Shown one piece after another: positions 2,828 to 54,900 of a DNA stretch of 64,000 nucleotides. Below the pieces are notes generated by a model, which was given only the letters and a program-made list of their open reading frames with translations, ran no database searches and was not told the DNA's origin. Location: positions 81,034,001-81,098,000 of the forward strand of contig OX597820.1 of assembly GCA_951406725.2 (NCBI GenBank). Reading direction: 5' to 3'. Each line of letters starts with the position of its first letter. Position 1 is the stretch's first letter. Source of the stretch: Octopus vulgaris. Taxonomy: Eukaryota. Both the position numbers and the translations under genes were made by a program.

Positions 2828-2873
2828 ATGAAATTATAAAGAATTCAACATGTTGAATTCTTTATAATTTCAT
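2828..2873. repeat. Perfect 46-bp palindrome
   Basis: ATGAAATTATAAAGAATTCAACA|TGTTGAATTCTTTATAATTTCAT, no spacer. Confidence 0.95.
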
Positions 2874-3063
2874 CAATGTCTATACGATAATGATATTTCA
2901 GATATACTAGTTGAAATTAGAATTCAAAAGCCAGCAAAGTTTATAATAAATAGCTAGGAAGTAGTGAAGTTCTTGTTCCTACTGCTCCTGCTACGTGTTG
3001 AAGTAAAAGGAGACTATTGTCGCCTTTCTCCTGTTGGCATGGGCTGGACGGTTTGATTGAAAA

Positions 3064-3484
3064 AGGCGGCGAGCTGGCAGAAACGTTAGCACGCCGGGCG
3101 AAATGCTTAGCGGTATTTCGTCTGCCGTTACGTTGTGAGTTCAAATTCCGCCGAGGTCGACTTTACCTTTCATCCTTTCGGGGTCGATAAATTAAGTACC
3201 AGTTACGCACTGGGGTCGATGTTATCGACTTAATACCTATATCTGTCCTTGTTTGTCCCTCTATGTTTAGCCCCTTGTGGGTAATAAAGAAATAGAAATA
3301 GGTATTTCGTCTGCCGTTACGCTCTGAGTTCAAATTCCGCCGAGATCGACTTTGCCTTTCATCCTTCCGGGGTCGATAAATTAAGTACCAGTTACGCACT
3401 GGGGTCGATGTAATCGACTTAATACCTATGTCTGTCCTTGTTTGTCCCCTCTATTTTTAGCCCCTTGTGGGTAATACAGAAATA
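3064..3484 (+). mobile_element. tRNA-derived SINE (family 1), full copy plus 5'-truncated tandem copy inside one TSD
   Basis: GGCGGCGAGCTGGCAGAAACG...GAGTTCAAATTCC (A/B boxes). Second copy starts at 3301. 14-bp TSD GGTTTGATTGAAAA at 3050-3063 and 3485-3498. Confidence 0.9.
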
Positions 3485-4507
3485 GGTTTGATTGAAAACC
3501 GGTAAGCTGGGGGGATCTGTTCAGTTTGACTCACAGATTTTTTTGATTAATTTTTTGGCAATCCTTCGTTTTAACTCGACGAAACTAAAACAAACACTCA
3601 GTTGTTTCGTTTTGATTAATTTTCAATAAAAAAAAAAACGTTATATGGTCTTGGTGAATGCAAGATATTATAGGTAAAGGTCAAAGTTTGTAACCTATTA
3701 ACATCTGATGACCTTTTTACAGAATAAATTTACTTAGCATTTGCATGAACTTGTAGATCTTGACCAGGCAATCATTTTAAGTGGTCATTTGAAATATTTT
3801 GGTGAAGAATTGCAAAGTTAAAGCTGTTTGAATTTTCCATACCCTAATTTCTGCCACCAGCTGTTAGAGTGAACATGGTCAAAAAGTCCATGGTGGGCAT
3901 CTTCCATTCCATTTTTTTTTTTTTTTTTTGCTGGCGACGTCAGTTTTCTGACTTGTTAGATCCAGGGCTACATGAAAATAACCATTAAAGTAAATCACAT
4001 GACCCCCACTAGCCCATGGCCTAAGTGCTTTTAGGAGACTTCTGCACTATTATTCTGAGGTGTATATTTGTGTAAGATTATGGATATGATTTTTGTTTTA
4101 TGCATTGATTGGTGCTTTGAGAAATGAAGTTTGCTGTTGAAACAAGTAGTGTCCTTCACATATCTTTTTTTTCAATTTTTGAATTTTTTGCTTCATTATG
4201 TTGGTTGGTAGTTTATGGATGTGGTCTCTGTACAACTTAAAAGGATGCACAGTGTGATGTGTGTTCTTTGTAATTTACTGTAGGGAGATTAAGGAAGGGA
4301 GTATCAAGAGAGGGTTGGCATTGTCTATAATAGATCTGATGTAGTGTCTATATGCTATTTTTGTTTCTTTCTGTTGGTTTAATGTTGTACCTGTAGGTAA
4401 TCTTAGCATGTCTGGTTTAATCTTGCTTTTCCTAATATGTCTTTTACATATGTTGTGAATATGGTGGAAGTATTGTATGTAATATTTATAATTTTGTCTT
4501 CTGGATC

Positions 4508-26844: not shown

Positions 26845-27278
26845 CTAAAATTAGAAATGAACAAAAATTAAGCGTAAGTTTTTATAACTGTAAGGAATAC
26901 ATTTTAAACTGTAATTTATTTGAAATTATTTAAAAACAAATAGGCTGCATTAATTAGTGAGCAAACTTCAAATGTGACACAATAAAAAAGAAATAACTCA
27001 TTGACACAACATTAGTTCAACAAACAACAACCATAATTTTTGGAGAGTCTATATAAAAAAATTTCTTGACACAAGTAATCAAAATAGATATATTCAATGA
27101 ACCTTCCAATATTTACATGTTGTTATTTCTAGCTTTATGTACTTCACAATACACCATTCCAAAATAGATTACATGTAATTAATTTTTCTTCACTGTTTCA
27201 CTTGGCTCAATTATTATTGATGAAAACTGGATAAGTTTGGTGTAAGAATAGTGAAAAATCAAAATCAAACATTTATAT

Positions 27279-27561
27279 GATGTTGTTGTATTTAGGAATG
27301 ATCATTTTGCCAGTTTAGCCAATAAAAACACACGCACTATATATTTGGTGTTAATTTGCTTCAGCGTTATTTATTTTTTTTTACATTAATCTTAATCTTA
27401 TTTCGGCCAGAGTTCTTTCGTCATACTTCTGCGACCTCATCAGTAGTCCTTTGCTTTCTTCTTTCTTATTTGTGTGTCTCTCCTTACTAATGGTTAGCCA
27501 TTTTGTATTTTGTATTATTGGCTAAACTGGTAAAATGACCATTCCTAAATACAACAACATC
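27279..27561 (-). mobile_element. Penelope pLTR-derived element with 47-bp inverted ends and a minimal hammerhead (27405-27449, minus)
   Basis: Inverted arms 27279-27325 and 27515-27561. Minus strand GGACTA-CTGATGAG-GTC...GAC-GAAAG-AA-CTC-TGGCC. Homologous to the 3' end (55215-55370) of the Penelope-like element. Confidence 0.75.
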
Positions 27562-28581
27562 TGTTTCAACACACGATTTCACATCAAGAATCTTGCAAAA
27601 CAAATATATAAACGTAATTTATATGATGAGTTTGTAGATTGAACTGTTAATATATTTTGTAGATTGAATTGTTATTTAATATATTATACTGAAATGTAGT
27701 TTGTTGTAATTGACTGTGATAAATTATTCCAAGCTGTAAAGTATTGACGGTAGCTGTAATATGATTTGTGTGGGTGTAATGCATTGTTCTGAGCTAAATA
27801 TCTATATTGATAAAAGTGTAATTCTGTCTGTCTATATCTCAGTCTACATTTGCTCTACATAGACATATTATATCTTTTTGGAATCAAAATGATCCCAAGA
27901 TTGAAAATCTGCCCTTCATTTGGTTCTTGAACATCCAGCATTGGGATCTGATTTAAAAGCATTTGGGTTGCTATTTCTAGCAGGTAAAACAACTGTGAGA
28001 GGTACAAGAATTAGCTCCCTTAGCCTTAAGTCTTGCTATGGAATTTAGTGGTTCTTTTATCTTTTTCAGTCATCAGACTGCGGCCATGCTGGGGCACTAC
28101 CTTGAAAAATTTTAATCGAACAAATCAACACCAATTCTTTCTTTTTTATGCCTGGTATTTTTTTATTGGCCTACTTTACTGAACCGCTAAGTTATGTGAA
28201 CATAAACATTATCAAGTGGTGGTGGGGGACAAATACAGACACAGTCACAACACACACACACACCCACACATACACATCTCGTATTCAAATTTTAAAAGGA
28301 CTCCAAAAGTTTGTGAAGTTACAAGTTTTTCATTTAAACTGAATTTAAAGCAATACCATATTGGTAGGGTACCAATAAATGCTTTATTATTATTGCTCTC
28401 TTAGTTTTGGGCTACAGGCCCAATTAGCCCTCCACAAGAGCTAGATTAAAAGTCCACATGGTGTGTGGCTTTTAAGCTAGTATTGCATATGTTTAAAACG
28501 TGATCAACTGTATCAAAAGATTTGTTCTATAACAAAATGAAATTATTTATGATTTTCATATTTAGTGTTGAAATACATGTA

Positions 28582-30285
28582 TAATTCTAGCTTTCTCATT
28601 TTTGTTTCTGTTCCTGTTTTTGTTCTTGTATACATTCATTTGCCTTTCCTAGAAGCTTAATGTTTTTAGCTTAAGTCTCTGACACTTGCAGGATTTGAGT
28701 AGACTTGGAGATAAGGGGGCGAAACTACAAGGACTTTCTGGACTCCAACTGATGAGGAAATCAGCTGCGAATGATTTATGTATTTTGTTTTTGTCCTGTT
28801 TGCCATTTGACATGCTATCATCTATTTTTCAGCATGTTGTGTTTTGTTGGTTTCTGTTTGTTGCATTCTTTCTGTCCTACCTTTGATTTATCCATGCAGC
28901 ACTCCATACAACCTGTTGTTTACTTTGTTAAAAAAAGATATCCCTTGAATATTATGTATGACTCTCACTCTCTCTTCCTCACTTTCTCCCTTATTCCTTC
29001 CTTCTCTCTCTCTCTCTCTGTCTCTCTTTCTTTCTCTCTATTCCCATCCCTCTCATTCCTCAGTCCCTCTGATTTCATTTTCCCCTCTATTGTATTCCTC
29101 AATCCCTTTTCCTCCCTCCTGCTTATTCTTCAATCCTTTTGCTTTCCTTTCTCACTTACCTTCCTTGTACCTTTTTCTCTCTCTCTCTGCCTCTATCTAT
29201 CCCCCTCTCTCTCATTCTTTAGTTGCTCTGATTTCTTTCCCCTCTCTCCTATTCCTTAGTCCCTCTGTCCTCTTTAACTCCTTCCATCTCCTACCATGTG
29301 ATTGTTGTCTGGCTAAGGCACTGTCATCCTTTTTTGATGAGCCACCTTTCAAACTGGTCATGTTCATCTGTGTGTTAAGATTTTCCATTTTTCCTTTGCG
29401 CCAGCTTACTACATTCATCTGATAGTCAAAGGACCCTTTTTGTTATCTATTTATGTTGTAATTGTACAATTATTTTCCTTTTGCTGTATAGTCGAAAAGC
29501 ATTTGTTCATTGTGTATGTATAATTCTATTTCTACTGCACTTGTATTATTATTAAAAAATGAAATGGACATTGTAGTTGTGATACCTGTGCCAGTGGCAC
29601 ATTAAAAGCACCATCCGTACGTGGCCGATACCAGCGCCGCCTTGACTGGCTTCCGTGCCAGTGGTACATAAAAAGCACCCACTAAACTCACAGAGTGGTT
29701 GGCATTAGGAAGGTCATCCAGCTGTAGAAACATTGCCAGATCAGACTGGAGCCTGGTGCAGCCTTCTGGCTTCCCAGACCCTGGTCAAACCGTCCAACCC
29801 ATGCTAGCATGGAAAATGGACGTTAAATGACGATGATGATGATGATGATGATGAATGTTATGTTTGTCTGATAGTTGAAAGACTCTTTCTGTTATTTATT
29901 CATATGTATTCATATATGTACAAAAATGTTTTTACTTCTATTGTATAGCCGAAATTCTAGCTTTCTTGTTTTTGTTTCTGCTCCTGTTTTCCTTCCTGTA
30001 TACATTTATGTGCATTTCCCAGAGGCTTAATGGTTTTAGCTTAAGTCCCTGGCACCTGCTGGATTTGAGTAGTCTTGGAGATAAAAGGGCAAAACTACAA
30101 GCACGTTCCAGTCTCTGACTGATGAGGAAATCGGCTGTGGATGATCTGTGTATCTTGTTTTTGTCATGCTATCATCTATTTTTCTGCATGTTGTGTTTTG
30201 TTGGTTTCCGTTTGTTGTGTTCTTTCTGTCCTACCTTTGATTTATCCATGTGACACTCTGTACAACCCGTTGTTTACTTTGTTGG
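28582..30285 (+). repeat. Pair of ~340-bp direct repeats (28582-28935 and 29953-30285) around a CT-rich tract and an RTE UTR
   Basis: AATTCTAGCTTTCT...TTAAGTC...GGATTTGAGTAG...CTGATGAGGAAATC...CTACCTTTGATTTATCCATG occurs in both copies, offset 1370 bp. Confidence 0.85.
29560..29853 (+). mobile_element. RTE LINE 3'UTR copy
   Basis: Conserved body and (GAT)n tail. Confidence 0.85.
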
Positions 30286-31093
30286 AACAAGATTATTGGT
30301 TACAAGTAGATTTATATATAGTTAACACTTGATAATAGTTTTAAAAAAAAAGCACTTAAAGATTGGTTACAACTAGTAGGTTAAAATATGATTACTGATT
30401 AAAACAGAATGCTGCTAAAACTAGATTAATGGTAAAAACAAGATTAACACAGGATTACTTGTTAAATCAAGAAAACTGGCAAAAAAAAAGGACTACTGAT
30501 TAAAATGAGATTCATAGTGAAAGCAAGATTAATACTCAAAACAAGATAATGATTGATACAAAATTAGTGGTTAACACAGGATTACTGATTAAATCAGGAT
30601 TACTGGTTTAAAAATGGATTACTAGTTAAAGTATAATGAATTTTTATCTTGTACAGCAAATGAATCCAGAGTTATATCTTTTCAAAACATCTTTTCCAGC
30701 TGACTAACAGACTTTGGCAAACAGACTTTATTATGCAGTACTGTTACTACATATTTCTTGCTCAGAGATTTAAAACTAATTTTCTCTTTATGAGATCAGT
30801 GATTGCATATCACTGATCTCATAAAGGTTTCAGGGTTCAGTCCCACTGCGTGGCATTTTTGTAATTAGTTTTTTCAAGGCTGGTCCTTATTGTATCAGTC
30901 TCTTTCACTGAACCATTAAATCCAAGTAAAAATTATTCACCCCCTTCTTTTTTCCCTCCTATCTAACTAGATAGAAAACATATATATATATATATATATA
31001 TAAAGGGAAAGTTTACGAAAATAAACAAAAGACGAAGGCAGGTGGTATACAAACAAACAAATGTATTAGTATAGCGCTCAGGAATAGAAAAAG

Positions 31094-31131
31094 TCTTTTA
31101 CGTTTCGAGCCTACGCTCTTCGACAGAAAGA
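31094..31131 (-). ncRNA. Minimal type I hammerhead-like motif (variant core)
   Basis: Minus strand TCTTT-CTGTCGA-AGAGC-GTAG-GCTC-GAAAC-GTA-AAAGA. Stem I and stem II pair; the core has CUGUCGA instead of CUGANGA. Confidence 0.55.
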
Positions 31132-31207
31132 TACACAGAAAAAAACAAGGAGACAAACAAGGAGAGAACAAAAAATGTGTGTAGTAGCTAACGATCTATC
31201 ATGGCGT

Positions 31208-31725
31208 CATATGCTTTCGGTGCAAATAGTTTTTTATACGTCACCAATTTTACAATCCTGTAAATAATAATAATGGTATTTTCATATAAGCTTAAATCTT
31301 ATGGCTATCACTATACAATGACTAAAGAAAATAGTCTAATAAAGGGACATATAAGGCCCTCGACTGAAAAAAGAAGGCATTCCTATCTGCGTGGGAGTCG
31401 AACCCACATCCCTTTGTTAAGTTGACTAAGTGTGTTACCTTTACACCAGCGAATCAGCCTCCCTTTTCCTGTCAAATTTAAGAACTACAATAGTTCGTGT
31501 TTGTTTTTTTATATGTAAACAAACTTTCTATATGCTTTCAGTGCGAATGTTTTTTTATATGGCATTGTTTTCACAAGCCTGTAAATAATAATAATGGCAT
31601 TTTTATATAAGCTTAAAGCAATCACCATGCAATGACTAAGGAAAATAGTCTAATAAAGTGGCATATGAGCCTTCGACAGAAAAAAGAAGGCTTTCCTATC
31701 CGCGTGGGAGTCGAACTTGCACCTT
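31208..31725 (-). repeat. ~320-bp tandem duplication containing a tRNA-like Pol III head
   Basis: Unit restarts at ~31530 (tatgctttc...cctgtaaataataataatgg...). Minus strand TGGTGTAAAGGTAACAC...GTGGGTTCGACTCCCAC at ~31390-31455, but no proper acceptor or anticodon stem. Confidence 0.6.
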
Positions 31726-31729
31726 TATT

Positions 31730-32346
31730 AGATTATTATAAAATCCATTCTGTGTGTGTGTGTTTGTGTGTCTTCTCGGATCTCGGGCATCTTCCATCCG
31801 ATTGTGCTCAAATTTGATATGTAGATACCCACGGTATCAGGGCATGTATAAGTCTTGAAAAAATTACAAAAATTGATTCCAGATGAGAATGCGATCGATA
31901 AAGCTGTGGGAAATTGTTTTTTCTTTGGTTGCACAAGTGACTATATGGCGCTGATAAGAGTTGTCTCCCTTAACAAGCATGCATATTTCATACAGAGTCA
32001 ATCATTTTTCTTTCTTTTTCTTTTTCAACTACTGTTGAGTGCCAAACAAATTTGCCAAACTCAATTTAGTTACCTCCCTTGTGTTCTCCCAGTCAACAGC
32101 CTTATCATTACTGGTACTTTAAACTCTTCGGTTGCATATTTGTGTGAATAAAATCGTTTTTCTTTGGAATGGAAAAAAAAGTCTATCTTTATTTCTTCTG
32201 TTGCTGGTGTCTCAAATTTAGATTAAATCAGTGTTACTCAAAGGGGAGGCCTATGGGACGGTCGGACAAGTTCTTTTGAGAAAATTTGGTTTAAATGTTT
32301 GACAACTCAGCACTGTCCATTAGACGGGGGTGGCGTTTTGCTCGTA
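31730..32346 (+). mobile_element. Possible non-autonomous Helitron
   Basis: 5' microsatellite-containing start, CCATCCGATTGTGCTCAAATTT, and a 3' GC-rich hairpin region ending GCTCGT (CTAGT-like). No TIRs seen. Confidence 0.35.
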
Positions 32347-32844
32347 TATATATAAACATGTCTATAATAATAATTATTTGAGGGAATATTAATCCTAACT
32401 TACAGGGAAAAATTCAATTTAGAAATACTAAATCAAATTTCACACAATATAATATATATATATCATCATCATCATTTAACGTCCGTTCTCCATGCTAGCA
32501 TGGGTTGGACGGTTCGACCGGGGATCTGGGAAGCCAGAAGGCTGCACCAGGCTCCAGTCTGCCTTCTGGCTTCCCAGGTCCCCAGTCAAATATATAAATT
32601 AGAAAAAAACCACCTTTTATCAATTCAAAATGAACAATTAAATTACACCATCTAGAAAATCACATATGATAGAAATATTAAAATTTAAATAACATTAATA
32701 TACCGATGATTAAGTAAATTGCAAAAAATAATAAAAACATATATAATTGGAAGAATAACGACACGTGTTTCATGGCTATATTTAAGAAATGATTATAGTA
32801 AAAAATTAATAGTAGTAGTAAAAACATATATATATATATATATA

Positions 32845-33140
32845 TCATCATCATCATCATCATCATCATTTAACATCCGCTTTCCATGCTAGCATGGGTT
32901 GGACGGTTCAACTGGGGTCTGGGAAGCCCGAAGGCTGCACCAAGCCAGTCAGATCTGGCGGTGCTTCTACAGCTGGATGCCCTTCCTAATGCCAACCACT
33001 CCGTGAGTGTAGTGAGTGCTTTTTATGTGCCACCGACACAGCTGGTGAACGGCCATGCTCGGATGGTGCTTTTTATATGCCACCGGCACAGAGTCCAGGC
33101 AAGGCTGGCAACGGCCACGATCGGATGGTCTTTGTTACGT
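32845..33140 (-). mobile_element. RTE LINE 3'UTR copy (partial copy also at 32462-32590)
   Basis: (CAT)n tail and conserved body. Confidence 0.85.
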
Positions 33141-33169
33141 ATATATGTATGTGTGTATGTGTGTATATG

Positions 33170-33271
<102 letters not shown>

Positions 33272-34043
33272 CATGTATGCATATAATCATGTTCCATGCT
33301 TGCATGGGTTGGACAAAAATGTTTTTCAGTGCCTACTGGAATCATAATCCAGACACACCATAAATTGTGCAGACATGCTAAACACTAAGGCAATTGTCAT
33401 TTTATTCATTCTTTCACTCATTCATACATTCATACATACATACATCTTTGTGTGTGTGTGTGTAATTACACACAGTTACAGAGAAAGAGAGTGAGAAATG
33501 GTAAAGTGTAATGCATAAATGAAAATCAGAAGAATTCCTTTTTTTCTTTGTTGCAGATTGCAGAAGAGATGGAAAAAGAAAGAAAAATGTTTCAGTTACA
33601 AGCATGTGAAGTAAGTATCTTTAATGACAGGATGGGCATCTGACTGTAAAGCAATGCTTTAGTAATATTTATTCGTCTGACCTTTACTACCACTGCAAAA
33701 TAGACAATATAATGAACAAAATATCAGAATGAAAATTGTATTTTTACCATTCAGCTGGTCATTATATTTCTTGACCATCCAACACTGACATCAACAGATC
33801 AGCTGTCCTCTATTATAATGACCATCACTACTGGCATTTCAAGTTTACCAGGTCACTATGTAACTGACCACTAATAACTGATATCTACTTATTGCTAATG
33901 TATATGTAATAAACCCTTAAAGAGAGAGCCCCAGGATGACCACAGTCCAATGACTGAAACAAGAAAAGGATAAAAGATAGTCCCCCAAAACATTTAGTCA
34001 TGGGACCCCTAGGCTAATTCCTGCTTTGATAGTGAAAGTGGGC

Positions 34044-34267
34044 TTAACTCTAGCATTTAATCCAGCCATTTCTGGTCCAGATATTCTCCTGGTTTTATGT
34101 TAAAACTGAGCAGATCCAATGTCTCACACCTACCTTACAAGGTCATTCTAAACAAACAACCACATCATAGAAATTGTGAAGCTATGAGAAAATGCATGAT
34201 TAATTCAAAACAATGTGAATAAATAAGGTTTACATTTGACAAAAAAATCTGAATGTTCAAGAGTTAA
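34044..34267. mobile_element. Old TTAA-flanked MITE (piggyBac-like)
   Basis: TTAACTCTAGCATT ... AATGTTCAAGAGTTAA termini. Confidence 0.45.
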
Positions 34268-34324
34268 AGTTGTATATGTGTGGCCTATTCTATCCATATC
34301 AGATACCATAAGCATCCACATAAA

Positions 34325-37109
34325 TTTTTGGAATTGCTAGCTTTCCATACTGTGTGATTTTGGCATTGCTAGCTTTCCATACTTTGTGATTTTGGCACTG
34401 ATAGCTTTCCATACTTTGTGATTTTGGCACTGATAGCTTTCCATACTTTGTGATTTTGGCATTGCTAGCCTTCCATACTTTGTGATTGTGGCACTGCTAG
34501 CACTCCATACTTTGTGATTTTGGCACTGCTAGCTTTCCATACTTTGTGATTTTGGCACTGTTAGCTTTCCATACTTTGTGATTTTGGCACTGCTGGCTTT
34601 CCATACTTTGTGATTTTGGCACTGCTAGCTTTCCATACTTTGTGATTTTGGAATTGCTGGCTTTCCATACTTTGTGATTTTGGCACCGCTGGTTTCCATA
34701 CTTTGTGATTTTGGCACTGCTGGCCTTCCATACTTTGTGATTTTGGCACCGCTGGCCTTCCATACTTTGTGATTTTGGCAAAAATTTTCGGTAAAAAATT
34801 TTTCAAAATATTTTTGGGGAAAATTTTTTGAAAATTTTCTAAAAAGTTTTGGGGAAAATTTTAGAAAAATTTTTGGGGAAAGTTTTCGAAAAATTTTTGG
34901 GGAAAGTTTTCGGTGAAAATTTTCGAAAAATTCTGGGAGAAAATTTTCGAAATATATTTTGGTAAAATTTTCAATGAAAATTTTGGAAAATCTTTGGGGA
35001 AAATTTTCGAAAAATCACAAGCACAACGGTGCCAAAATCACAAAGTATGGAAGGCCAGTGGTGCCAAAATCACAAAGTATGGAAGGCCAGCGGTGTCAAA
35101 ATCACAAAGTATGGAAGGCCAGTGGTGCCAAAATCACAATGTATGGAAGGCCAGCGGTGCCATTATCACAAAGTATGGAAGGCCAGCAGTGCCGAAATCA
35201 CAAAGTATATAAGTGATTTTGGCACTGCTGGCCTTCCATACTTTGCGAGTTTGGCACCGCTGGCCTTCCATACTTTGCGATTTTAGCACCGCTGGCCTTC
35301 TATACTTTGTGATTTTGTCACCACTGGCCTTCTCTATTTTGTGATTTTGGCACCGCTGGACTTCCATACTATGTGATTTTGTCACCGCTGGCCTTCCATA
35401 CTTTGTGATTTTGGCACCTCTGGCTTTCCATACTTTGTGATTTTGGCACCGCTGGCTTTCCATACTTTGTGATTTTGGCACAGCTGGCTTTCCATACTTT
35501 GATTTTGGCACCGCTGGCTTTTACATACTTTGTAATTTTGGCACCGCTGGCCTTCCATACATTGTGATTTTGGCAAAAATTTTCGAAAAATTTTTGGGGA
35601 AAATTTTCGGTAAATAATTTTTCAAGAAATTTTTGGGGAAAATTTTTTGGTGACAATTTTTGAAAAAGTTTTGAGGAATATTTTCGGTGAAAATTTTCAA
35701 AAAATTTTTGGGGAAAGTTTTCGAAAAATTTTTGGGGAAAGTTTTCGGTGAAAATTTTCGAAACATACTGGGAGAAAATTTTCGAAATATATTCTGGTAA
35801 AATTTTCAGTGAAGATTTTGGAAAAATTCTTGGGGAAAATTTTCGAAAAATCACAAGCACAACGGTGCCAAAATCACTAAGTATGGATGGCCAGTGGTGC
35901 CAAAATCACAAAGTATGGAAGGCCAGCGGTGTCAAAATCACAAAGTATGGAAGGCCAGTGGTGCCAAAATCACAAAGTATGGAAGGCCAGCGGTGCCATA
36001 ATCACAAAGTATGGAAGGCCAGCAGTGCCGAAATCACAAAGTATAGAAGTGATTTTGGCACTGCTGGCCTTCTATACTTTGCGAGTTTGGCACCACTGGC
36101 CTATCATACTTTGTGATTTTGGCACCACTGGCCTTCCATACTTTGTGATTTTGGCACCGCTGGACTTCCATACTATGTGATTTTGTCACTGCTGGCCTTC
36201 CATACTGTGATTTTGGCACCTCTGGCTTTCCATACTTTGTGATTTTGGCACCGCTGGCCTTCCATACATTGTGATTTTGGCATCACTGGCTTTCCATACT
36301 TTGGCACCGCTGGCCTTTACATACTTTGTGATTTTGGCACCGCTGGCCTTCCATACATTGTGATTTTGGCAAAAATTTTTTGGTGAAAATTTTTGAAAAA
36401 GTTTTGGGGAATATTTTCGGTGAAAATTTTCGAAAAATTTTTGGGGAAAGTTTTCGGTGAAAATTTTCGAAACATTCTGGGAGAAAATTTTCGAAATATA
36501 TTTTGGTAAAATTTTCAGTGAAAATTTTGGAAAAATTCTTGGGGAAAATTTTCGAAAAATCACAAGCACAACGGTGCCAAAATCACAAAGTATGGAAGGC
36601 CAGTGGTGCCAAAATCACAAAGTATGGAAGGCCAGCGGTGCCATAATCACAAAGTATGGAAGGCCAGCAGTGCCGAAATCACAAAGTATAGAAGTGATTT
36701 TGGCACTGCTGGCCTTCCATACTTTGCGAGTTTGGCACCGCTGGCCTTCCATACTTTGCGATTTTAGCACCGCTGGCCTTCCATACTTTGCGATTTTAGC
36801 ACCGCTGGCCTTCCATACTTTGCGATTTTAGCACCGCTGGCCTTCCATACTTTGCGATTTTAGCACCGCTGGCCTTCTATACTTTGTGATTTTGTCACCG
36901 CTGGCCTTCTATACTTTGTGATTTTGGCACCGCTGGACTTCCATACTATGTGATTTTGTCACCGCTGGCCTACCATACTTTGTGATTTTGGCACCTCTGG
37001 CTTTCCATACTTTGTAATTTTGGCACCGCTGGCCTTCCATACTTTGTGATTTTGGCACCGCTGGCCTTCTATACTTTGTGATTTTGGCATCGCTATCTTC
37101 CCATACTTT
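34325..37109. repeat. 32-bp satellite in alternating inverted blocks with A/T-tract spacers (three-fold higher-order repeat)
   Basis: Monomer CCATACTTTGTGATTTTGGCACCGCTGGCCTT, period 32 (e.g. 34505 to 34537). Forward blocks 34325-34780, 35213-35575, 36049-36371, 36694-37109. Spacers 34781-35010, 35576-35846, 36372-36555. Reverse blocks 35011-35201, 35847-36037, 36556-36682. Confidence 0.97.
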
Positions 37110-38713
37110 CTGTTAGTCTCTCATTTGCAAACTTAAATCTTAAATATACATTAACTATATGAAGATATGATCTACTGGTGGTCAGTAATGTAGTGACTTT
37201 GTTTTTAAAAAGACTAATTTTAGAAAAAAAAAATTATATATATATAAGGTGTTTACATACGACCCATCCCAGTTCTATCATAAAAACCAATACTCTTTTA
37301 ATTTGTTTTACTGAATCTCATCTCATCTCACCTCACTTTTTACACTAAACCTATTTAGCAGTCTTTATGTACTCAGCTAACACTAATTGTCACAAGTATA
37401 TGTGCATAATAAGACTTTGCTCATCCATAATTTTTCCTCATTCTTTTAGCAACAAAAAGCCATACTTCAAAACAATGCTATCTCTAGTGTATACAGTTTT
37501 AGTCTGTTAGTCATATAATATTTCATTATACATTGTGTTTACTTTAATTTCCATAACCTTAGTTGTTAACTACTGCTTGCTGTCTGTTTCAGTAAATTCC
37601 TGAGAGAATTTTTCAAGTCACAATAGCTTATATCTATTTTTATTCATCACATTAAAATCGATTTGATTTATAGTATGTTCATCAGGGGAAACCCATGTAT
37701 ATGGTTTTCACACATACTGCTTCAAACAAATGTTAAATTGCCTTCCACAGTAAAGCTGATTACTCATTGTCCACTTCCATTGATAACAACTGACCTGAAT
37801 CTTCTAACTATATTTGTTACATGTATTTTAGAATTTCTCACCCTTTCATATAAAATTTTAATGGTTATAACAACATATTATCAATGACTGATCAATGTAA
37901 GGGTCAAATTTCATTTAAGAAATTTCTTTTAGATAAAAAAAACAAGAAAACTTCCAGCTGTCTTTAGAATGAATACCCCATATTTCAAATTCCAAATATG
38001 AGATCAATGTGTCTGAAAATAAAGTCATCAATTAATAACAAATGCTATGTTTGATTGACAACCTGCTGACTAACTAATTATAATTTCTAACAGAGGAAGA
38101 ATATCAGACATTTGGGGAGAGGAGAGAGGAATTAATCAATTTAATCAATTCCTGGAAAAATTTCCCATCTTGTCCAGCATTTTAATGATTCTAACACTTC
38201 TCTGATAATAATAAGACATCACTGTATAATATTCTCATAGCATTTTATCAAAATTTTGTAAACTGTTCTCTTACAGAAATATTTAAGTTTTTTTTCTTCA
38301 TCTGTTATGATTACTAATTAGGTTAATACATATTTAACAGAGATTTTAATATATAAATAAAAGATCAAGAATAATCAACTTGGCTAATTAGCAGACAACC
38401 AAGGGTTACACTGAGTAAGTGTGTGTTATTATCAAGATCTTAAGTGAGTGACAAGGTAACTGACAAAAGGCCCAGTTCACCTTAAACTGCAGAGCAGCAA
38501 CAGCAACAACAGCCTTACAAATTTTACCAAAGGTTTATTAGCCTGCAGTAGTACTGAGATCAACTCCTGTATCTCTGGAAAGAACTAACAGTACAGTTAA
38601 CCAATTCTCTAAACTTATGTTGCAATCAAATCCTCACTTTCATAGGTTGTTTGTGATGTCTAATGTATAACAATCCATTCCACACCATTGAATTCATCAT
38701 ATATATATATATA

Positions 38714-41488
38714 AGGAGATGTCTTCCTGGGGCTATAAGCTACAGTAGCATCAACCCTTAAGGGTTAGCCATATTTAGGTGGCAAATATACTTCACAATG
38801 TCATGCAGCTGCTGTTTATACCTCACTCAGAGATTTATTATTGCTGGTTTCCACTTTTTTGAGATCAGTGACTTTTCGTCACTGAAAAAAGTATATATAT
38901 ATATATATATATTTGCATTGAGAACCACTTCCCATCATCAACCGGTTTTTTTGCGCCATTTTTCGGAATTTCTGTTACCCTGCTTTGTGAGTTTGCCTTT
39001 GGCTTGTTACCTATTTTGTTGATTTGTGTTTTACATGAATTTGAACTGTTGTCCGTTGTAAGACATTAATTTTTGCCCTACGGGGTAGCAAATTATTGTG
39101 GAACTTAGTTTAAAATATTATTTGTGAAAAATTATTTTTTTACCCATTGACTGGTTGTGTATTCTCTGTAATTTTGTCATTTTTCACAAAGTGTTGAAAA
39201 AGTTATAACGGAATTCAACATTGAATCCCAAAAAGACTTTCCCAAAATGAGAAAAGGAAATGAAAATTTAAGTCAAAAGGAAAAGGCTAAACAAAGTTTT
39301 TCAGAGACAGTGGGTGGCAACGTCACAGAGCTGGAAATTAAAATGGAACAGTTGTGCAAGTTTTGCAATTTCGTTAAAAAAAGTTACGGCAATACAAGAC
39401 TGTTGCCACCCCCTGAAACACTACAGGCAATAAACGCATGCACTGTAGTGTACAAAATATACAACATAAAGGAAAAGAAAATTAAAGACACAAAAATGAG
39501 ATAATAGAGAGGTGCTTGGCACCAATATGGAATTTAATATGCTACATTAGCTGCAGAACAACAAGTGCTACTGTTGAAGCACATTTCGAAACGGCTAACA
39601 TAGCCAAAGAAGTCTCAAGAATGATGAAATAATTCTGCTACCCATGTACTTGGGCCGCAGAGCAGCAAAAGTAACAATCGACAAAATTCCAGCAGGCAAT
39701 AAAAACCTGCACCACCTCCACCCACCCTTTCAGGGACAGCGCCCTTCCAGACCAGATCTGGACTAGGGCCTCCACTCTGCCTGTCACCTCACTCCAATTC
39801 TTCTTTGTCTTGGAATCTGGTCCAAACCTTACTCCGAGCAACAGGACCATCTGACCATTGTCCCTTACCTTGATTTGTGACTATGCAAATTAGTGCAACT
39901 TCTCTTCTGCTTTTTGTGGAAGGGAAAACTGCTTGTGAGGCACTCTGTATGCTGCCAAGAACTGCTAAAGGGTGGGTTAGGGATGCCGTGGCTATTGATG
40001 TACAGGCATGCACTGAGGCTAAGGCATCTCTGGCTCAACCTGTATGGTGGTCAGGTGTGGAATTCGCTTGCAGGGCCTCCACGACCGGCCTCCTTCGAGG
40101 AATTTACACCCGATTTGATTAAAAGACAGAATATGGCCGAATGGCAAAAAGAATGCTGAAAGGCACTCACACTAATCCACAGGGTGGGCAAGGCTGGCAG
40201 CGGGAATACCACCTCTGTATTTTATAAAGGGATGGTTGAGTATAAGAGTGATGATGTCCTAAAAGAGGCTCTGGGATTCGATGAGAACCAGCTAGCCAAC
40301 CTGTTTCAAAAAACCTTCAGGCCAGGGTATTTAGACAATTACAAAGATCCCTGACCTGGAAGTGTTACAGGGATGCATTACCTGTCTGTGATAAATTGTC
40401 CAGGCATGGAATATCAGTGTCACTGGCATTCCCACGGTGCAGGCAGGATGATGAAACTGTTCTGCACTCTCTTGTACAGTGCCCAGAGATTTCAGGCTTG
40501 ATAATTTATGTAGAACACATGTGGTCGCACCTAGGAAGAGTACAGCTATCAGCTGAGTCAGTGATAAAAACTGTACAGCCAACCGGACTATCAAAGGAAG
40601 GTGAGGCATGTTTTCTGTATATGGTCACAGTAATGAAAGAGTGTGCATGGAGAACCAGAATGCAAGGAATCATGACAGGATCCTTCAACTCCAACCCTGG
40701 TTTGCTATTCTACTTCAGGTACCATCTGAAGAGCAAGATAGGGCTGGAGAGAAGATACCTGTTGCAAAGTATATATAAGAAAAGATGGAAGGATGTCGTT
40801 AGGAAGTTGGGAGTGACTGTCCCTATTTAATTCCACCCATGGTAGAAGCGAGTTGTAATTGCTGGCCTTCCGGCCATATTTTGTGAAAATAAGTTTGTGA
40901 AAATTGTTTATTTATATATATATGTGATTCATCAAATTTTAAAATATAAACTCATTTTTAATTTATATATATATATATATATGATTCATCAAATTTTTAA
41001 ATATAAACTCACTTAGTATATTTATATGTTTGTAATGTTCTGTATTGACCTTCTTTGTAATACATATTTATCATCATAATAAAAAAAAATAGTGGTTGTC
41101 ACACACTGATGATGGTAAATATACTTCATGATGTTGTGCAGCTACTGTTTATACCTTGCTCAGAAATTTATTATTGTTTGTTTCCACTTTTTTGAGATCA
41201 GTGACTTTTCATCACCAGAAAAAGTATATATATATATTTGCATTGAGAACCACTTCCTATCGACAACTGGTAGTTGTCACATGCTGATGACAAGTCAATA
41301 CCCAGAAACTCGGGTCTGTGTGTATCACGTCAGGCTGGAGATGGGAAAGATAACTTCCTTTTGAAAATACTGATAGGGCACAGAAAGCATGTCAATAGCC
41401 AGCTGGAGGAGATGTCTTCCTGGGGCTACAAGCTACAGTAGCATCAACCCTTAAGGGGTAACCATATTTAGGTGGCAAATATACTTCA

Positions 41489-41490
<2 letters not shown>
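38714..41490 (+). repeat. ~360-bp hammerhead-bearing repeat in partial tandem copies (38714-38945 and 41090-41490), split by a LINE
   Basis: TGG(C/T)AAATATACTTC recurs at 41113 and 41473. Segments are shared with 38714-38945. Hammerhead-like CACATG-CTGATGA...GAAAC-TCGG-GTC-TGTGTG at 41278-41322. Confidence 0.7.
38946..41089 (+). mobile_element. L1/Tx1-clade LINE with internal deletion and inversion
   Basis: ORF1-like start at 39247 (to ...LPMYLGRRAAKVTIDKIPA). Inverted ORF2 piece at ~39694-39863 (NWSEVTGRVEALVQIWSGRALSLKG). Then LFCFLWKG...GGLGMP and the zf-RVT-like PRCRQDDETVLHSLVQCP. Ends AATAAAAAAAAA. Confidence 0.85.
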
Positions 41491-41523
<33 letters not shown>

Positions 41524-43534
41524 TTCCTTTGCTACAAGAAATGTACACACATTACAACATCCTTAGTAAGGAAAGCTGTTGAGAATGACATCATACTGCC
41601 CATTTCTGTTTTTACAAATCAAAATGTTTCAGCTTTATATAATTTTGTATTTAATAAAACGTTTTAGAATTTTCCAGAGTAACTTTTAATATTTCATATC
41701 TTAACCCAATGTGCATAATGTAAATTGGTTTGCATAATAGTCCACCTCAGATGTTAGCTTATAACAAGTTATGTCTGTTATACTATACAATATTAATAAA
41801 ACAGCCATACTCACTTATAGGGTATTGTAGCAGATCATTGTTTAGAATCAAAACTCTGATATTTCTGCCTAGATTAGGGCATTGTTTTTGGCCATAGTAA
41901 ACACACCTGACATTAATTTCAAACAATTATATTTGTGGTGGGTATGATAAGTTGTCAGCTGCTTTCAAAGACTTGCTATTTTGTGCTAAAATGTAGGCAG
42001 AACATTCTGAAACATTCTGTTTTCATTGTTTTCTGTTTTTTCTTTTAAGAAATTAGCTTCAATTCAATCTTTTTACCAGAGATGTTTAAATGCAACCAAA
42101 GGTACTATCTCATGACAGGCCATTAAAAGACTTTTCTTTCACATCACTTTTCTGCATTTGTATCTGACATCATTCCATTTCTGTCTTACATCCACACAAT
42201 GGGAGACAACAAACACAACATATTTTGCATACATACACTTCTTATATAATCCTTCTTCTCTCTTATACTATAATAAACAATAAAGATAATATTCGTATAT
42301 ATTTCTCATATCCTCATTTATACTGAACTTTTTCTCCTAGTCATTTCAAGTTTTCTGATAGTCAACTAATGAGAATGAACACATTGAGAATATAACATTA
42401 TCTCTTTGTTATTCATCCTTAAGCATTAGTCTTATATGCAACATTTCCTTTTGCATTACATTTAGTAACATAATTATTCTCAATTATTATTGACAACTCT
42501 ATTTGGTCTCCTATCATTAATTTCTCTTCAACATTTATTCTTAGTTATAGCACAAACTCTTCTAATTATTTATATGACATATACTCTTCTAATTATTTAT
42601 ATGGTGTATACTCTTCAACCCAATTTTATACTTGCTACAAAAACATGGATGTCAAATAGACAGAATGAAGAAAAAAAATTGAATAGAAGACTTAATGCAA
42701 TACCTGATTTGCTGCCACCACCACCACCACCACTTGATCCATAGATGTCTTTAACAGAATCAGGATATTGTTGCAAAGCTTACTTTTGTATTCTAATCCT
42801 GATAAAAAGGACTTTATCATTCAATCATTGGGGTTAGCTAGAATAGGTGTAGGAGTCAATATAAATGAATTTCGGATGAGGGCCGCCAAAATGCACCTAT
42901 ATAAGAAATTATTGTTGTGGGTCAGGGTGCAATATTTGTGCTTGATTTCGATTAGTCACAATAGAACTTTTTATATGTGTAATTCCTAGTAATGTTAATT
43001 TATTTTACATGTTATGTACATGTATAAGCCCTTCCTTTAATGGTAGTTACATTGTGAATGGTTAAAAAAAGAATTATTTCATCAACCAGAATAAGAAGAA
43101 AGTTTTGATATAGAAAAATGCCAATCAAATTAATTCACAGAGATCCTTATTTTCCAAATTTAGAATTCTAAAATCCAGAAATGTATAACACACTAATGTA
43201 AGCCATCAATACTACTGTCATTTCACACATCCAACCAGCAAAATATTATGTTCAACTATTTTTATTGCATTTGTCTGAATGGTTCAGTGATTCATTCTGA
43301 GATTACTGAAGCAAGAAAGTTCAAATTAATAATAGTCAAGCAAAATAAAAGTGTTCAGGTTATTTTAAAATACAGTATCTAGGCTGAAATCAACTCCAGG
43401 TAATAAGCCATGTGCTGGATGAGCCAGGAGGTATGTATACACAAAATCAAACTAAAATACAACAGAAATATGTACAAACAAATAAGCACTGCTACAACTT
43501 TCAGCAGCAATAGTAGTAAAAAAAACATTCACAC

Positions 43535-43845
43535 AGTAAGAAGCTTGCTTCTCAACCACATGGTTCTGGGTTCAGTCCCACTGTATGACACCTTGGGCAA
43601 GTATATCCCATAAACAAACTTAATGGTTAAGTGTGTGTGCTTGTCCCCCACCACTGCTTGACAACAGGTGGTGGTGTGTTCATGTCCCCAATACTTAGCA
43701 GTTTGGCAAAAGAGACCAATAGAATAAGTACTAGGCTTCAAAAAATAATAAGTCCTGAGGTTGATTCATTTGACTAAGACCCTTCAAGGTGGTTTCCCAG
43801 CATAGCTACAGTCTGATGAGTGAAACAAGTAAAAGATAAAAGATA
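43535..43845 (+). mobile_element. CORE-like tRNA-SINE (family 2), internally deleted
   Basis: GGTTCAGTCCC B-box, ACCTTGGGCAAGT, and a 3' ...TGAAACAAGTAAAAGAT tail. Further copies at ~24880-25145, 28056-28270, 44690-44835, 46555-46848, 51400-51805, 61370-61740 and 63745-63880. Confidence 0.8.
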
Positions 43846-46100
43846 TCTAAAATAATTAAATTCTAGTTTTTTTGTCATTCATTCTTATTCATCGTTTAAT
43901 ACTGTATATGATCATCCCATACATATCATTATCATTAGCAACAGTAGCAATTAATGTCTGTTTTCATGCTGGCATGGGTTGTATGGTTTGACGGAAGTTG
44001 GTAAGGCTGGGAGTTGCACCAGGTTCCATTGTCTGTTTTGGCATGGTTTCTACAGCTAGATGTCCTTCCTAATGCCAGCCACCTTACAGAGTAGCCTAGG
44101 TGGTTTTTACATGGCACCATCATCATCAGGGTGTGGCTTTGTACCAGATGAAAGATTAAGGGTATAGAGGAACAAAGATGGGTGTCTTGCTATAGAGTAG
44201 ATACATGGATACCTCAGTTGGAAAAGAAAGGAGAGTGAGTTAGGCAATAAGATAGAGAGAGTGATTGTGGGAGAGATGATGGTGAAGATACGTTATAAAT
44301 ATAAATATATATTTCTGTATGTGTAAAGTAACAGTTTTAGAAAAAAACTATTGGCTTCATATCTAGTGTGAACTAAACATATCATCAGTTTCCCAAAACA
44401 ACTGTTCTCTGCAAAGAATGTTTTTTAAAAAACATCATCAGCATCACCCCAATCGTTTTTAATGTTCACCATTTCACACTTGCATGGATTGGATGGAATT
44501 TGTTGAGAAGGATTTTTTACAACCTGCTGCCATTCCTGTTGCCAACCCTCACCTATTTCCAAGTAAAGTAATATTCCTCCATGAACAGATATGCTTACAC
44601 AAATATTTTAAATAAAGAACAGCCATTTATAACTATCAAATGATGTTGAGGTAAAGAGATAATACCACAGGCACAGATACGCACACAAACACACACATAA
44701 GGCTTTGGTTGGCCTAGGACTATTGTAGAAGACACTTGCCCAAGGTAGTGGGACTGAACCTAGAATCACGCAGTTGGGAAACAAGCTTTTTACCAAACAG
44801 CTATGCTAGCACCTAAAAGCCATGCCTGCACCTATAGCCACTTATATGTGTGAGTGTGTGTATGTGTGTCTATGTGTGTGCTTATGTTTATGTGCATGTG
44901 TGTGTGTGTGTGTCTTTGTCTTGACATGAAGGGGATTCATAGAATGATGCTCTAACTTACAGCATAACTATTCTAGTGAACTTGTACTGCAGCCAACCTC
45001 TTTCACTGCAGACATTCAGGTGTAAGATTGTATTGATTGTAATTCTGAAGTTTGGACTTAACCTGAAATCTTTCTGATACACCAAGTTGTAAGAGTGTGA
45101 ATGACTGGCTGTATGTGATATCAGTTCAGCATTCGAGAGCATGTTATTTACCGTAATAGATTTGCATTGTCTCAAAATGCCTGAAGTAATTGTGATAAGA
45201 GTAGTTAATGCTTATACAACGAATAAAAATTGTTGATCACCAAATCAATAAAATTAATGACCATTTACTTAAGAACCAGTCATAAGTTGTTCATCTCACA
45301 TAGTTAAAACTATGTTACAGTTCTATGGCTAACATTATTAACACAATTCTCTAGCTCTATAGCTCTACCATATAGTAAAATACTTCACCGTTGTTAATTA
45401 ACAGCAGCTTTATAAAAGTAACAATTGTTTCAGAAGGATATATCGCTAGTTGTTGTTTTACTTGAAAACCAAGTCTTCAGTGATGTCCCCCACACCATGA
45501 AGTTGTAGTAGCAACTATTTATTTATCAGAGATTAATTGTTAAAGTGCTCCTGACATTTTACTAGCACTTACTTTATTAACCCAGAGAGAATTTAAGGCT
45601 GAACCAATTCAAGGAGTATTTGGACTGTGAATGGGACTGAAATGTTTTTTTGCCTGGAAGCATACTGTTTATAGCAATTTATGACATTAGAGAAGATTGT
45701 GCCATGAAGATCTGTTTGATCATGGATGGCTTAGGGTTAAACAACAACAATAGTAGCAGCAACTAATGGCTGGAATTTTAAAAGATTATATTTGATTGCT
45801 AGATTGATTAGTGATTTCAAATGTTAAATGAACATTCATTGTCTGATTTAAAAAAAAATTAATTCCTTATATAAACAAAGATATGTATAACTCAATTGCT
45901 GATTTCCTCTCCTCCTAAAATAAATTGTCTTTGAGTCCAATCAAACAAAAGTATATATTAAACATTATTTACAATTTTAGGTGCCAGGAAAACCTGGAAC
46001 TTAGGTATTAAGTAATGGATCTTTCTACTTTATCTTTCAGTCTCAGATGAATGGAGTTTATTTATGATTATGTAAAGTTAACAAAGAGACAGATATTTAC

Positions 46101-51959: not shown

Positions 51960-54900
51960 ACCCCAAGTCTTTCACAAAAATACAAAAATACGTTGGAATT
52001 TAATCATGTATAACAACAACAACAATGCAAACAACAATAACTGCAGCAACAACAACAACAACACAAGCATTAATGACTGCCACAGCAACAACAACAACAA
52101 CCGTAGCAACAACAACAATACGAACAGCAGCAACAATAGCAAAAAACAAACACATGAACACAAGCAACAGATACAAATACAAAAACAGAGAAAAAATCGA
52201 ATACAACAACAACAACAATAACAGGAGGAATAGACACACAGACACACACAGATGACCGTAGGCACAAGGACACGAATAAAAGTAGGGTCATGGGGGAGAG
52301 TAAAGTTGAATGCTACAGAATTCTTGGACAGGGTTCAGTAGACTTGAACCAGAAAACACTGCTGCTAGTAGAAACATTGCAGCAACCACAACAGGAAGAA
52401 CCGTAGGGACCAACTGGCAGACATAACAAGCAACACTAATACCAACAACACATACACCGACACCAGGTACATAGCGATAATCAGAGAGATAGTAATAGTG
52501 GTAGTCGTAGTAGCAGTAGTAGTGGTGGTGATGGTGGTGGGGTTGATGATGGTTGCAGTAGTGGTAGTAGTGGTAGTGAGGAAGATAACCCTAGAAGGGC
52601 CAACAATATGAATACCCACCCCCTTGACACATATGTGACAAATCTTACAGCATGAGTTGCATTTACCCGACAATACTACCCTTTAACAAAAGGGTCTGCA
52701 TCCCTAGACATACTAGTGACCGCATGGAAGTACAATTCACTATAGCTAGGACCAAACTTAGACAGATTTTAGAACTATACACTAAGAGACAGAATAAGAC
52801 AGAGGCCCAACAACTCGGGAATATACTCGCATGTAGCCTGGTGGTATGCTTCCCCACAGATAAGTCTGGCAGGATGTCGATAGACAGCTTGCCGAACTAC
52901 ATCCAGGCAATGCAACCTCACATCGCAAATATGAAAGTAACAACTTCACAGGCACATGAGGAGAGAGAAAAGGTCCTCAATGCCCACATGATGAAATGGA
53001 CAATTGTTCTTTGACCTCAGAAACACACAGCCAACAATTTCCAAGCCTGGAACAATAATATCTCGATGCTGTATAGACTCTGCAAGGACCACAAAATAAC
53101 CACTGATCCAGCGGTGGGACCACGAACAAGACCAGTCTACAGAGTGAATATCGCTAGCAACTACAGCATCTCCTACTTCCTCTCAATAATCATACACCCC
53201 ATAATCCAGATGTCATCTAATGTTTGTGAGAGAACGGAAGATCTCCCCAACAAGATCAACAACTGTAACAAGACCTGCGACCTAGCAGGATGTATAGTGG
53301 GTATATTCCTATACCAGATGTAGATTTTGTGGTGAAGTGCGTGGAAATGATCAGCGAGGGCGAAGTGGAGTTCCGCAAAGTCAACACAGAGGAACTGGGC
53401 CTCCTACTTAGACTGACATATGACAATGAATATCTAGACAAACATGACCTTAGAAGTTTCTGCCCCAGTAGACGTTTAAGAGGTAGACCACCCACAATTA
53501 CATCTATGGCTAAGAAGACCCCTGTAGAGAGATGGAGCAGATGGACCAGAGCCATACAGACCCACCCACCCAAAACGAATATCAAGTAAAAAAAATGATC
53601 ACACATGCGCAAGGAGCTAGTATAAGAGTTACTCTCAAAGGCCACACGTTTAAGTTTAACAACAAAATATATGCCCCGGATGAGGGGGCAGCCATCAGGG
53701 TTAGTATCGCTGGTGATGTGTCCAACCTTTTAATGGTATGGTGGGACAGGAGGCTTAAAGAACACCTGACGCAGAACTCCATACTCATGAACATGTACTC
53801 TCACTATGTCAATGATATCAACATAGTGGTAAAGGCTACCCCACTAGAAAGTACTCTTGAAATAGAAACTATACAATGGAAAGCACCCAGCAAATAGCTA
53901 ACTCCACCCAGCAGAGTATTAAGGTCATGATAGACTACCCTACAAAACACACTAACCATAGACTACCAGTACTAGATATAGAACTCTGGCTGGAAACTGT
54001 GAATAATAAAACTCAAATCCTTCATTCACACTATGCCAAACCTATGGCCTCCAAATACCTGATCCACCGGAACTAAGCTATCATGGACAATGCCAAATTC
54101 AATATATTGATGGCAGACCTCATCAGAGTAATGAGAAATGTGTCCTGCATGTGTGACCCTACAGAGTTAAAGAGACACATACAACTTTGTTCACCGCATG
54201 CAGTTCTCAGCAGACAGCCATAGAGAAAGGATCAGAGTATACAAAGGAACCATGAGGAAATTTGAAACTATTGTATGTAATGATAGGAATGGGATTTGCC
54301 CACTCTATAGGAGCAAGTTGTGGAAAACTATTAAAAGGACTAAGAAGAAAATAGGGAAGACCAACTCATGGTATGATAGCCACAAATACCAGAGTGTCAT
54401 GTTCGTTGACACCACCCCTAGAGGCAAACTGGCATACCACTTTAGAAGGGCCCTAGACAAACTTAAACTAAGAATTAAGGTTGTAGAAAAGCCAGGCAAC
54501 CCTATCAAATCCCTAATCAGTAGAACCTACCCTTTTAGAAGAACCCCTTGTACTGATAGGAACTGTATTCAATGTAGATTTAGCCCACAAACTGTAAAGC
54601 TAGGAATGTAGTCTATAGTATAAGATATACAGAGGGACAGTGCAGTAACAAGACAATGATGTATGTAGGGGAGACAGCACGGCGCATAGGGGAGTGGGTA
54701 AATGAATATTAGAGAGAACTTAAGGAAGAGAAGAGCTCATCTGTTTTGTACCAGCATGCCGAGCAGGAACACGGGGTGGGGGGAGGGGCTCACTTAACAA
54801 CACAGAAGGTAAAATCTTGTCCACAGATTGAACAGACACAATGCTTAGACAAATTACGGAAGCTATACACACAACAGAAAATAAACCTAGCCTGAATAGG

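Follow-up and report, generated by a model that had tools for sequence, protein, structure and literature searches.

How does an array of short tandem repeats in a caspase intron come to have its blocks alternately turned around, so that its transcript would fold into long hairpins? The question arises from a 64,000-nt stretch of the Octopus vulgaris genome (GenBank assembly GCA_951406725.2, contig OX597820.1, positions 81,034,001 to 81,098,000 of the forward strand; hereafter the window, in which unprefixed coordinates are counted). Here, between positions 34,325 and 37,109, forward (F) and reversed (R) blocks of a 32-bp monomer and A/T-tract spacers (S) form a cassette, for which the original prediction, made from the letters of the window, had offered two readings: an undescribed Foldback-type element or a hairpin RNA (hpRNA)-like source of double-stranded RNA (dsRNA) or small RNA. 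The explanation that we favor, with a probability of roughly 0.6, is a different one. The cassette is a rearrangement specific to this locus, within the 32-bp array of a multi-copy fragment of an ASAP gene. This fragment was likely spread by the reverse transcriptase (RT) of an RTE-like long interspersed nuclear element (LINE), and the inverted patch likely entered the array and was tripled there by DNA recombination after the insertion.

The proposed block order, F-S-R-F-S-R-F-S-R-F, was recovered in full by a monomer scan with a 32-mer from the window as the query, which gave F13-(241 S)-R6-(11)-F11-(282 S)-R6-(11)-F10-(195 S)-R4-(11)-F13. The three 11-nt loops and the offsets of 836 and 645 bp between them are also as described; loop 1 reads AAAGTATATAA and loops 2 and 3 read AAAGTATAGAA. 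The inverted pairing of the arms is real, but calling it near-perfect was somewhat generous, as 156 of 175, 148 of 175 and 102 of 111 positions pair in turns 1, 2 and 3, respectively (89, 85 and 92%). Open reading frames (ORFs) in the window's ORF list that run across the array are read-throughs of the repeat. Absent from the original prediction is a larger repeated element, at about 32844-37223, that encloses the array. The features of the locus are as follows.

26845..46100, minus strand: host, the last intron of the caspase gene (from PF00656 exons and splice sites)
32844..33140, minus strand: (GAT)n-tailed 3' end of an RTE-like LINE that encodes RT, forming the constant 3' end of the composite
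33141..33285, no strand: (TA)n/(TG)n microsatellite between the LINE tail and the ASAP piece; homology to the ASAP locus L073 starts at 33141
33286..34321, plus strand: captured intron-exon-intron piece of ASAP (Arf-GAP, BAR domain), antisense to the element and to the caspase gene
33557..33610, plus strand: 54-nt ASAP exon with AG/GT ends, aligning to residues 177-195 of ASAP3 (9jih_A), weakly when taken alone (E 0.56)
34322..34779, plus strand: F1, 32-bp variable number tandem repeat (VNTR) with outer monomers of the ASAP-intron type (monomer scan)
34780..35009, plus strand: S1, A/T-tract spacer in G-rich orientation, opposite to the usual F-to-S polarity of its family
35010..35201, minus strand: R1, reversed monomers (monomer scan)
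35202..35212, no strand: loop 1
35213..35574, plus strand: F2 (monomer scan)
35575..35845, plus strand: S2, spacer
35846..36037, minus strand: R2, reversed monomers (monomer scan)
36038..36048, no strand: loop 2
36049..36370, plus strand: F3 (monomer scan)
36371..36554, plus strand: S3, spacer
36555..36682, minus strand: R3, reversed monomers (monomer scan)
36683..36693, no strand: loop 3
36694..37109, plus strand: F4, with a last monomer of the ASAP type (monomer scan)
37110..37223, plus strand: remainder of the ASAP intron, found at 18 places; 37223 is the ragged, presumably 5', end of this copy

The ASAP part of the element is present in many copies. Window positions 33480-34345 match 20 places, this one included, over at least 750 bp at 92-100% identity and four more places partially, which is a lower bound because the best 40 of 5096 candidates were scored; positions 37100-37223 match 18 places. 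Among the 17 relatives that were fetched (loci L068-L084), one, L073 (C4:161.36 Mb), is by its sequence the parent ASAP locus. It retains five ASAP exons in order, upstream and downstream of the captured piece, with weak BAR_3 matches for three of the five frames and best matches in the PDB to ASAP3 (E 5e-9 and 3e-5), and the 54-nt exon of the window aligns to the ASAP3 chain between the two neighboring parent exons. The intron of L073 contains a plain array of 27 monomers, all of one type. One unbroken array of 7-51 monomers follows the same left flank in 16 of the 17 relatives, parent included, and in 13 of those 16 the right flank is present as well. L083 has spacer and reversed blocks in place of the plain array, and L069 carries a second, inverted partial copy of the element (positions 2625-3260). 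All 18 other rows of the alignment are 3.2-4.6% distant from L073. The window copy and the other copies are 1.3-2.9% apart and form a star-like tree with few supported forks.

On its other side, the ASAP piece is joined to LINE sequence. The tail is 84.9% identical over 291 nt (E 7e-95) to the DNA right behind the RT C-terminus in L024, and in L080 it lies about 600 nt behind RT sequence. On the left, an (ATC)n run, which is (GAT)n on the minus strand, is the common end of 16 of the 17 non-parent copies (scored by pattern in 15 copies and by eye in L082); L070 is without it. The length of the (GAT)n tail varies between copies, and the outer flanks of the tail-sharing copies differ, except in the trio L077/L080/L081. 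The right ends are ragged. They fall within the array (L075, L079, L082), at 37223 in the window, or at about +79, +108, +164, +381, +391, +757 and +2075, and some sibling copies extend rightward into the next ASAP exon. This combination, constant at the tail and ragged at the far end, is what target-primed reverse transcription leaves, and the retention of the introns would follow from ASAP lying antisense within the element. At about 3730-3770, where the captured piece starts, L073 itself has a short, old relic of this LINE tail, at which the first capture may have been primed.

The element is best read as a small LINE-tailed composite retroposon with ASAP exons, apparently undescribed: no description of the repeat or of the element was found in the literature searched, which comprised open-access main texts, with repeat libraries outside the comparison. 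It shares with SVA-like composites a fixed LINE-type 3' end, staggered 5' truncation over more than 2 kb and a variable internal VNTR, but is not an SVA, LAVA or PVA proper, for its repeat unit is a 32-mer and its body is derived from ASAP, compared to the primate 39-40-bp VNTR and a hexamer/Alu-like head. In the literature, untranslated regions (UTRs) of about 600 nt are given for the octopus element RTE-2_OV (PMC9115989), and microsatellite-like tails for RTE-related retroposons (PMC6007223).

The spacer and the reversed blocks of the window array are foreign to the parent and belong to a dispersed monomer/spacer satellite. The genome-wide check of the monomer that the original prediction had called for indeed showed a dispersed family in the 2.8-Gb assembly (227 contigs). 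A junction query gave 546 matches (best 40 of 284 candidates scored) and a 27-mer of the monomer gave 303 exact matches, with none for its reversed control. From those matches, 42 loci of 10 kb were sampled (L021-L047 and L053-L067; some are local duplicates and three are related to the ASAP element). They hold 889 monomers, in both orientations at 19 of the 42 loci and with a tight R-to-F turn at seven, where the turns carry several different loops. The monomer blocks of the family alternate with the A/T spacer, and some loci add a third unit of roughly 150-200 bp. For most family blocks, the spacer strand at the exit of the F block is C-rich. For all three in the window it is G-rich, which implies two inversion junctions per unit. 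Three motifs, namely the loop junction, the spacer-R junction and an F monomer motif private to this locus, each have exactly three exact matches in the assembly, all of them in this array. Hence, the cassette has not been dispersed as a whole. As to whether the F-S-R architecture recurs across the genome with target-site duplications (TSDs), tight turns do occur at seven other loci, but neither the same junctions nor TSDs above chance level were found.

In the window array, monomers of the ASAP-parent type stand at both outer ends and another type stands inside. Spacer DNA also abuts other copies of the element (L021, L083, L059/L091 and a tandem run on C1), from which it appears that recombination between the VNTR and the satellite family has occurred repeatedly. 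As to the three S-R-F units, S2 and S3 are 97.3% identical, R2 and R3 100%, and their loops are the same, while the spacer of unit 1 is 93-94% and its R block 97.9-99% identical to theirs; the F blocks of the three units are 92-95% alike. By spacer, R block and loop, units 2 and 3 are thus the most similar pair, suggestive of duplication in two steps.

These findings are in agreement with the following course of events, which starts from the plain 27-monomer array in the ASAP intron and from the fusion of a piece of this intron to the LINE 3' end at no fewer than 20 sites. An unspliced transcript, antisense to ASAP and ending in the (GAT)n tail, would have been copied by target-primed reverse transcription, and one such copy would have landed in the caspase intron. 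Through the shared 32-mer, repair or replication may then have switched template to a satellite locus and back. This would have left one inversion junction at the A/T spacer, which is self-complementary, and a second one, head to head, with the 11-nt loop. Unequal exchange could have copied the S-R-F unit twice, with units 2 and 3 arising last. The caspase pre-mRNA is predicted to fold as a result into duplexes of 110-180 bp, which would be ADAR substrates and a by-product without a selected role. Template switching of DNA is known from inverted triplications (PMC4689423), and DNA-level change of a VNTR inside a retroposon has been described for SVA and LAVA (PMC4432496). As for an imprint of editing on the DNA, a sense-strand A>G accounts for only one of the 29 distinct changes among the monomers, and the array thus bears no mark of a hairpin that was hyper-edited and retrocopied.

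Several observations weigh against this reconstruction. Five plain-array siblings all have a 'g' at the single diagnostic monomer position and score as the other monomer type; this position is not a clean donor marker, and it is the spacer that is the firm sign of foreign DNA. Monomers at mirror positions of the arms are no more alike than off-register pairs (16 turns at eight loci), with the exception of the first mirror pair in the window, which differs at one or two positions. The arms are, hence, not fresh fold-back copies; they stem either from an old fold or from a head-to-head join of two different runs. The same comparison rules out the simple form of in situ snap-back or tandem inversion duplication. 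The units differ more from each other, in their spacers (3-7%) and F blocks (5-8%), than the sibling elements do, and an older, ready-made cassette would fit this too. An exact-motif search of the assembly found no donor with the exact junctions. No clear TSD was found in 10 copies of the element, several of which lie between (TA)n tracts; with tail copies in general, TSDs were seen in three of 53 cases (shuffles: mean 1.3, maximum 4), a chance level that leaves this test little power for this element. The first query behind the 42-locus sample contained a turn. Finally, we take the donor of the tail to be of the RTE type from its C-terminal motif and UTR length and not from a tree.

The lack of mirror symmetry in the arms is what one would expect of two joined stretches, and it brings up the possibility that the inversions were made during reverse transcription, by template jumps to satellite RNA or by joins resembling twin priming, or that an older triplicated cassette arrived ready-made. 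Head-to-head turns do exceed tail-to-tail turns by eight sites to one when counted by exact patterns (about five loci to one, few and not independent), L069 and L030 contain partial copies of the element in inverted orientation, and the divergence between units again exceeds that between siblings. However, such an origin needs at least two switches plus a return to the original strand, three copies that are 0-8% apart and contain indels are not the product of one RT pass, the imprint of editing is absent and the junctions were not found in any sibling. We therefore consider it unlikely, though worth keeping in view. Spread of the ASAP fragment by a DNA route, either Helitron/Helentron capture or microsatellite-anchored duplication with the LINE tail as a passenger, would accommodate the retained introns, the lack of a TSD and the head-to-tail units of about 7 kb on C1, and satellite-like arrays borne by Helentrons are reported to be common in oyster (PMC7492417). 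Against it, one end is constant and falls exactly at the length-variable (GAT)n tail with the other end ragged, HINEs have two conserved flanking modules whereas the right end of this element is not conserved, and the antisense orientation already accounts for the introns. This route appears rather improbable. The Foldback/Mutator-type reading of the original prediction, a non-autonomous DNA transposon of F-S-R structure inserted in tandem, is largely refuted and now highly unlikely. The window array does have arms of short tandem repeats, in a modular inverted arrangement like the outer domains of Tetris/FB (PMC4079207), and L024 and L031 are large inverted structures. Yet both ends of the cassette are F blocks that run into the ASAP intron, with outer blocks belonging to the ASAP VNTR and no terminal inverted repeat (TIR) ends in the window. 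The outer flanks of unlinked family loci showed no common terminus among the flank matches listed, TSDs of at least 7 nt occur at one of 27 family loci and of at least 8 nt at none (1.33 by shuffling), and the junctions are private to this locus.

Chimeric fold-back reads give exact reverse complements, and an assembly artefact made of such reads was considered as well. The arms differ by 8-15%, the units differ from each other by substitutions and indels, similar turns exist at seven other loci, and a 1585-nt contig of sequencing run X2 bridges the right junction of the element, although X2 may be related to the source of the assembly. No listed contig of the independent runs spans a loop together with 31 letters to either side (590 further records are unlisted), and the loop junction thus rests on the assembly. 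Among the runs listed, 20 hold part of the stretch, none holds half of it or more and none is marked as RNA; a comparison of four runs is dominated by the LINE tail and is usable for the right junction and for relative ASAP depth, with contigs of the ASAP piece at about 17, 18 and 10 times the depth of the unique flank in X1, X2 and X6, figures that are not copy numbers. All in all, an artefact is unlikely in the extreme.

The hpRNA-like reading concerns what the cassette does rather than how it arose, and it could be combined with any origin. If the intron is transcribed, long dsRNA is predicted, as had been claimed: the modeled folding energy of the minus-strand RNA is -295 kcal/mol for one turn (z -35; equaled by 0 of 100 shuffles) and -321 kcal/mol for one F-S-R unit (z -21; 0 of 20). 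The locus might then be a source of small interfering RNAs (siRNAs) by which nascent ASAP RNA, the satellite or the element family is damped, or it might tune caspase splicing. Young Drosophila hpRNAs arise from fragments of transposable elements and genes (PMC10317233), and splicing failure is associated with an SVA within an intron of human CASP8 (PMC4754045), which makes an effect of the cassette on splicing possible. But hpRNAs are defined by Dicer-dependent siRNAs, with RNA-seq depleted in the hairpin arms (PMC10317233), and the RNA in question would be intronic and nuclear. The cassette is young and private, similar hairpins occur at unrelated loci, and positions 32000-38000 gave no Rfam match at the gathering score. 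The same caspase intron contains five further inverted pairs of 67-267 bp (69-94% identity), among which the cassette is the tightest duplex. Contigs of the monomer family are present in runs X14 and X19, which we guess to be RNA, and leave the loop uncovered; they are evidence neither way. Since the parent and 15 of the 16 other fetched copies are without hairpins, the hpRNA-like reading is not favored and seems very doubtful to us. Youth, privacy and absence from the siblings favor the modeled duplexes being a by-product; across animals, the targets of ADAR are chiefly young repeats (PMC9989829). A broader scheme, with an independent non-primate SVA-like retroposon built on an RTE LINE, a VNTR acting as a landing pad for inverted satellite patches and a caspase-intron hairpin whose endo-siRNAs or edited dsRNA would silence its own master or affect ASAP and caspase RNA as a self-made hpRNA brake, is speculative and has little probability in our estimate.

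Among known systems, the element most resembles in design the SVA, LAVA, PVA and FVA group, described as hominoid-specific (PMC4432496). Like these, it consists of a piece of a host gene, a variable central VNTR and a retroelement part, and both are non-autonomous, with 5'-truncated copies, VNTR change at the DNA level and likely mobilization in trans by a LINE, which for the octopus element is putative. In contrast to them, it has no sequence relation to the group, no hexamer/Alu-like head and no poly(A), ends in a LINE 3' UTR and (GAT)n, carries its host exons antisense and unspliced, and numbers only a few tens of copies. With 5' transduction by non-long terminal repeat elements and RTE-tailed short interspersed elements (PMC6007223, PMC9115989), it shares the LINE 3' end, the microsatellite-like tail and the UTR of about 600 nt, but it is without a visible RNA polymerase III head or a clear TSD and its body is an intron-exon piece plus a minisatellite. 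The Cg_HINE Helentron arrays of oyster (PMC7492417) are likewise short tandem arrays that lie within larger mobile units and are dispersed in the genome of a mollusc; around neither the octopus satellite nor the ASAP element, for which no dedicated subTIR search was made, were two conserved flanking modules found.

The cassette, on the other hand, is comparable to the Foldback element Tetris in its inverted arms of short tandem repeats around a middle region (PMC4079207). FB elements are alike in this respect. Long inverted repeats at the termini and TSDs of 8-10 bp characterize Foldback elements (PMC4079207), whereas the cassette has neither terminal inverted ends, nor a TSD, nor dispersed copies of the same unit. 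[quoted passage not shown] The hpRNAs of Drosophila (PMC10317233) are also long, imperfect, young and repeat-derived inverted repeats in transcribed regions; the octopus cassette differs in being intronic, and its duplexes are predicted ones.

The hairpins themselves look like repeat turnover, and the carrier is the more useful result: a young family of at least 20 copies, in which intact exons and a minisatellite travel behind a LINE tail in a design convergent with that of SVA/PVA. As the parent and many plain siblings are available, the locus offers a clean before-and-after series for the birth of a long intronic dsRNA, and comparison of the hairpin copy with the plain siblings makes editing, dicing and disturbance of splicing testable.

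The host intron is the 19-kb last intron that had been claimed. Three Peptidase_C14 (PF00656) exons were found on the minus strand by a Pfam search of the window, and the intron extends over 19,256 bp from the donor at 46100 to the acceptor at 26845. Since it is one landing site among at least 20, the link of the cassette to apoptosis looks incidental.

Some further rearrangements were seen among the element copies. L021:2957-6900 (C12:10.79 Mb) is a second copy with its own fourfold alternating inverted array, which has a different loop and the opposite orientation; its far flank is common with L082. L030:4597-5400 has an internal inversion and a deletion. One sub-lineage (L072:6184-8015 and L088:5631-7429, C13) exits ASAP at +258 and continues with a second captured segment, 1.8 kb long and 96% similar to an unrelated locus on C13. 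On C1, positions 20,012,000-20,061,999 (L048-L052) are a head-to-tail run of units of about 7 kb, each with the left part of the ASAP element, the array, spacer/third-unit satellite and other repeats.

In the satellite family, the third unit alternates with the spacer at L040, L042, L043, L044, L045, L061 and in the C1 tandem run, which makes the family a three-part complex satellite. An Rfam search of three third-unit loci gave 48 matches, none of which reached the gathering score, and no hammerhead. At the satellite block L065:4042-5630, the outer flanks match each other over 32 nt in inverted orientation.

Elsewhere in the window, the caspase intron holds a LINE remnant with a zf-RVT match at 40285-40830 (E 2.9e-6). 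An RVT_1 match (E 8.6e-7) for a remnant in the window is just under the cut-off. Positions 52628-54611 hold a succession of plus-strand ORF fragments without Pfam matches, which we take to resemble a decayed Penelope-like RT/endonuclease.

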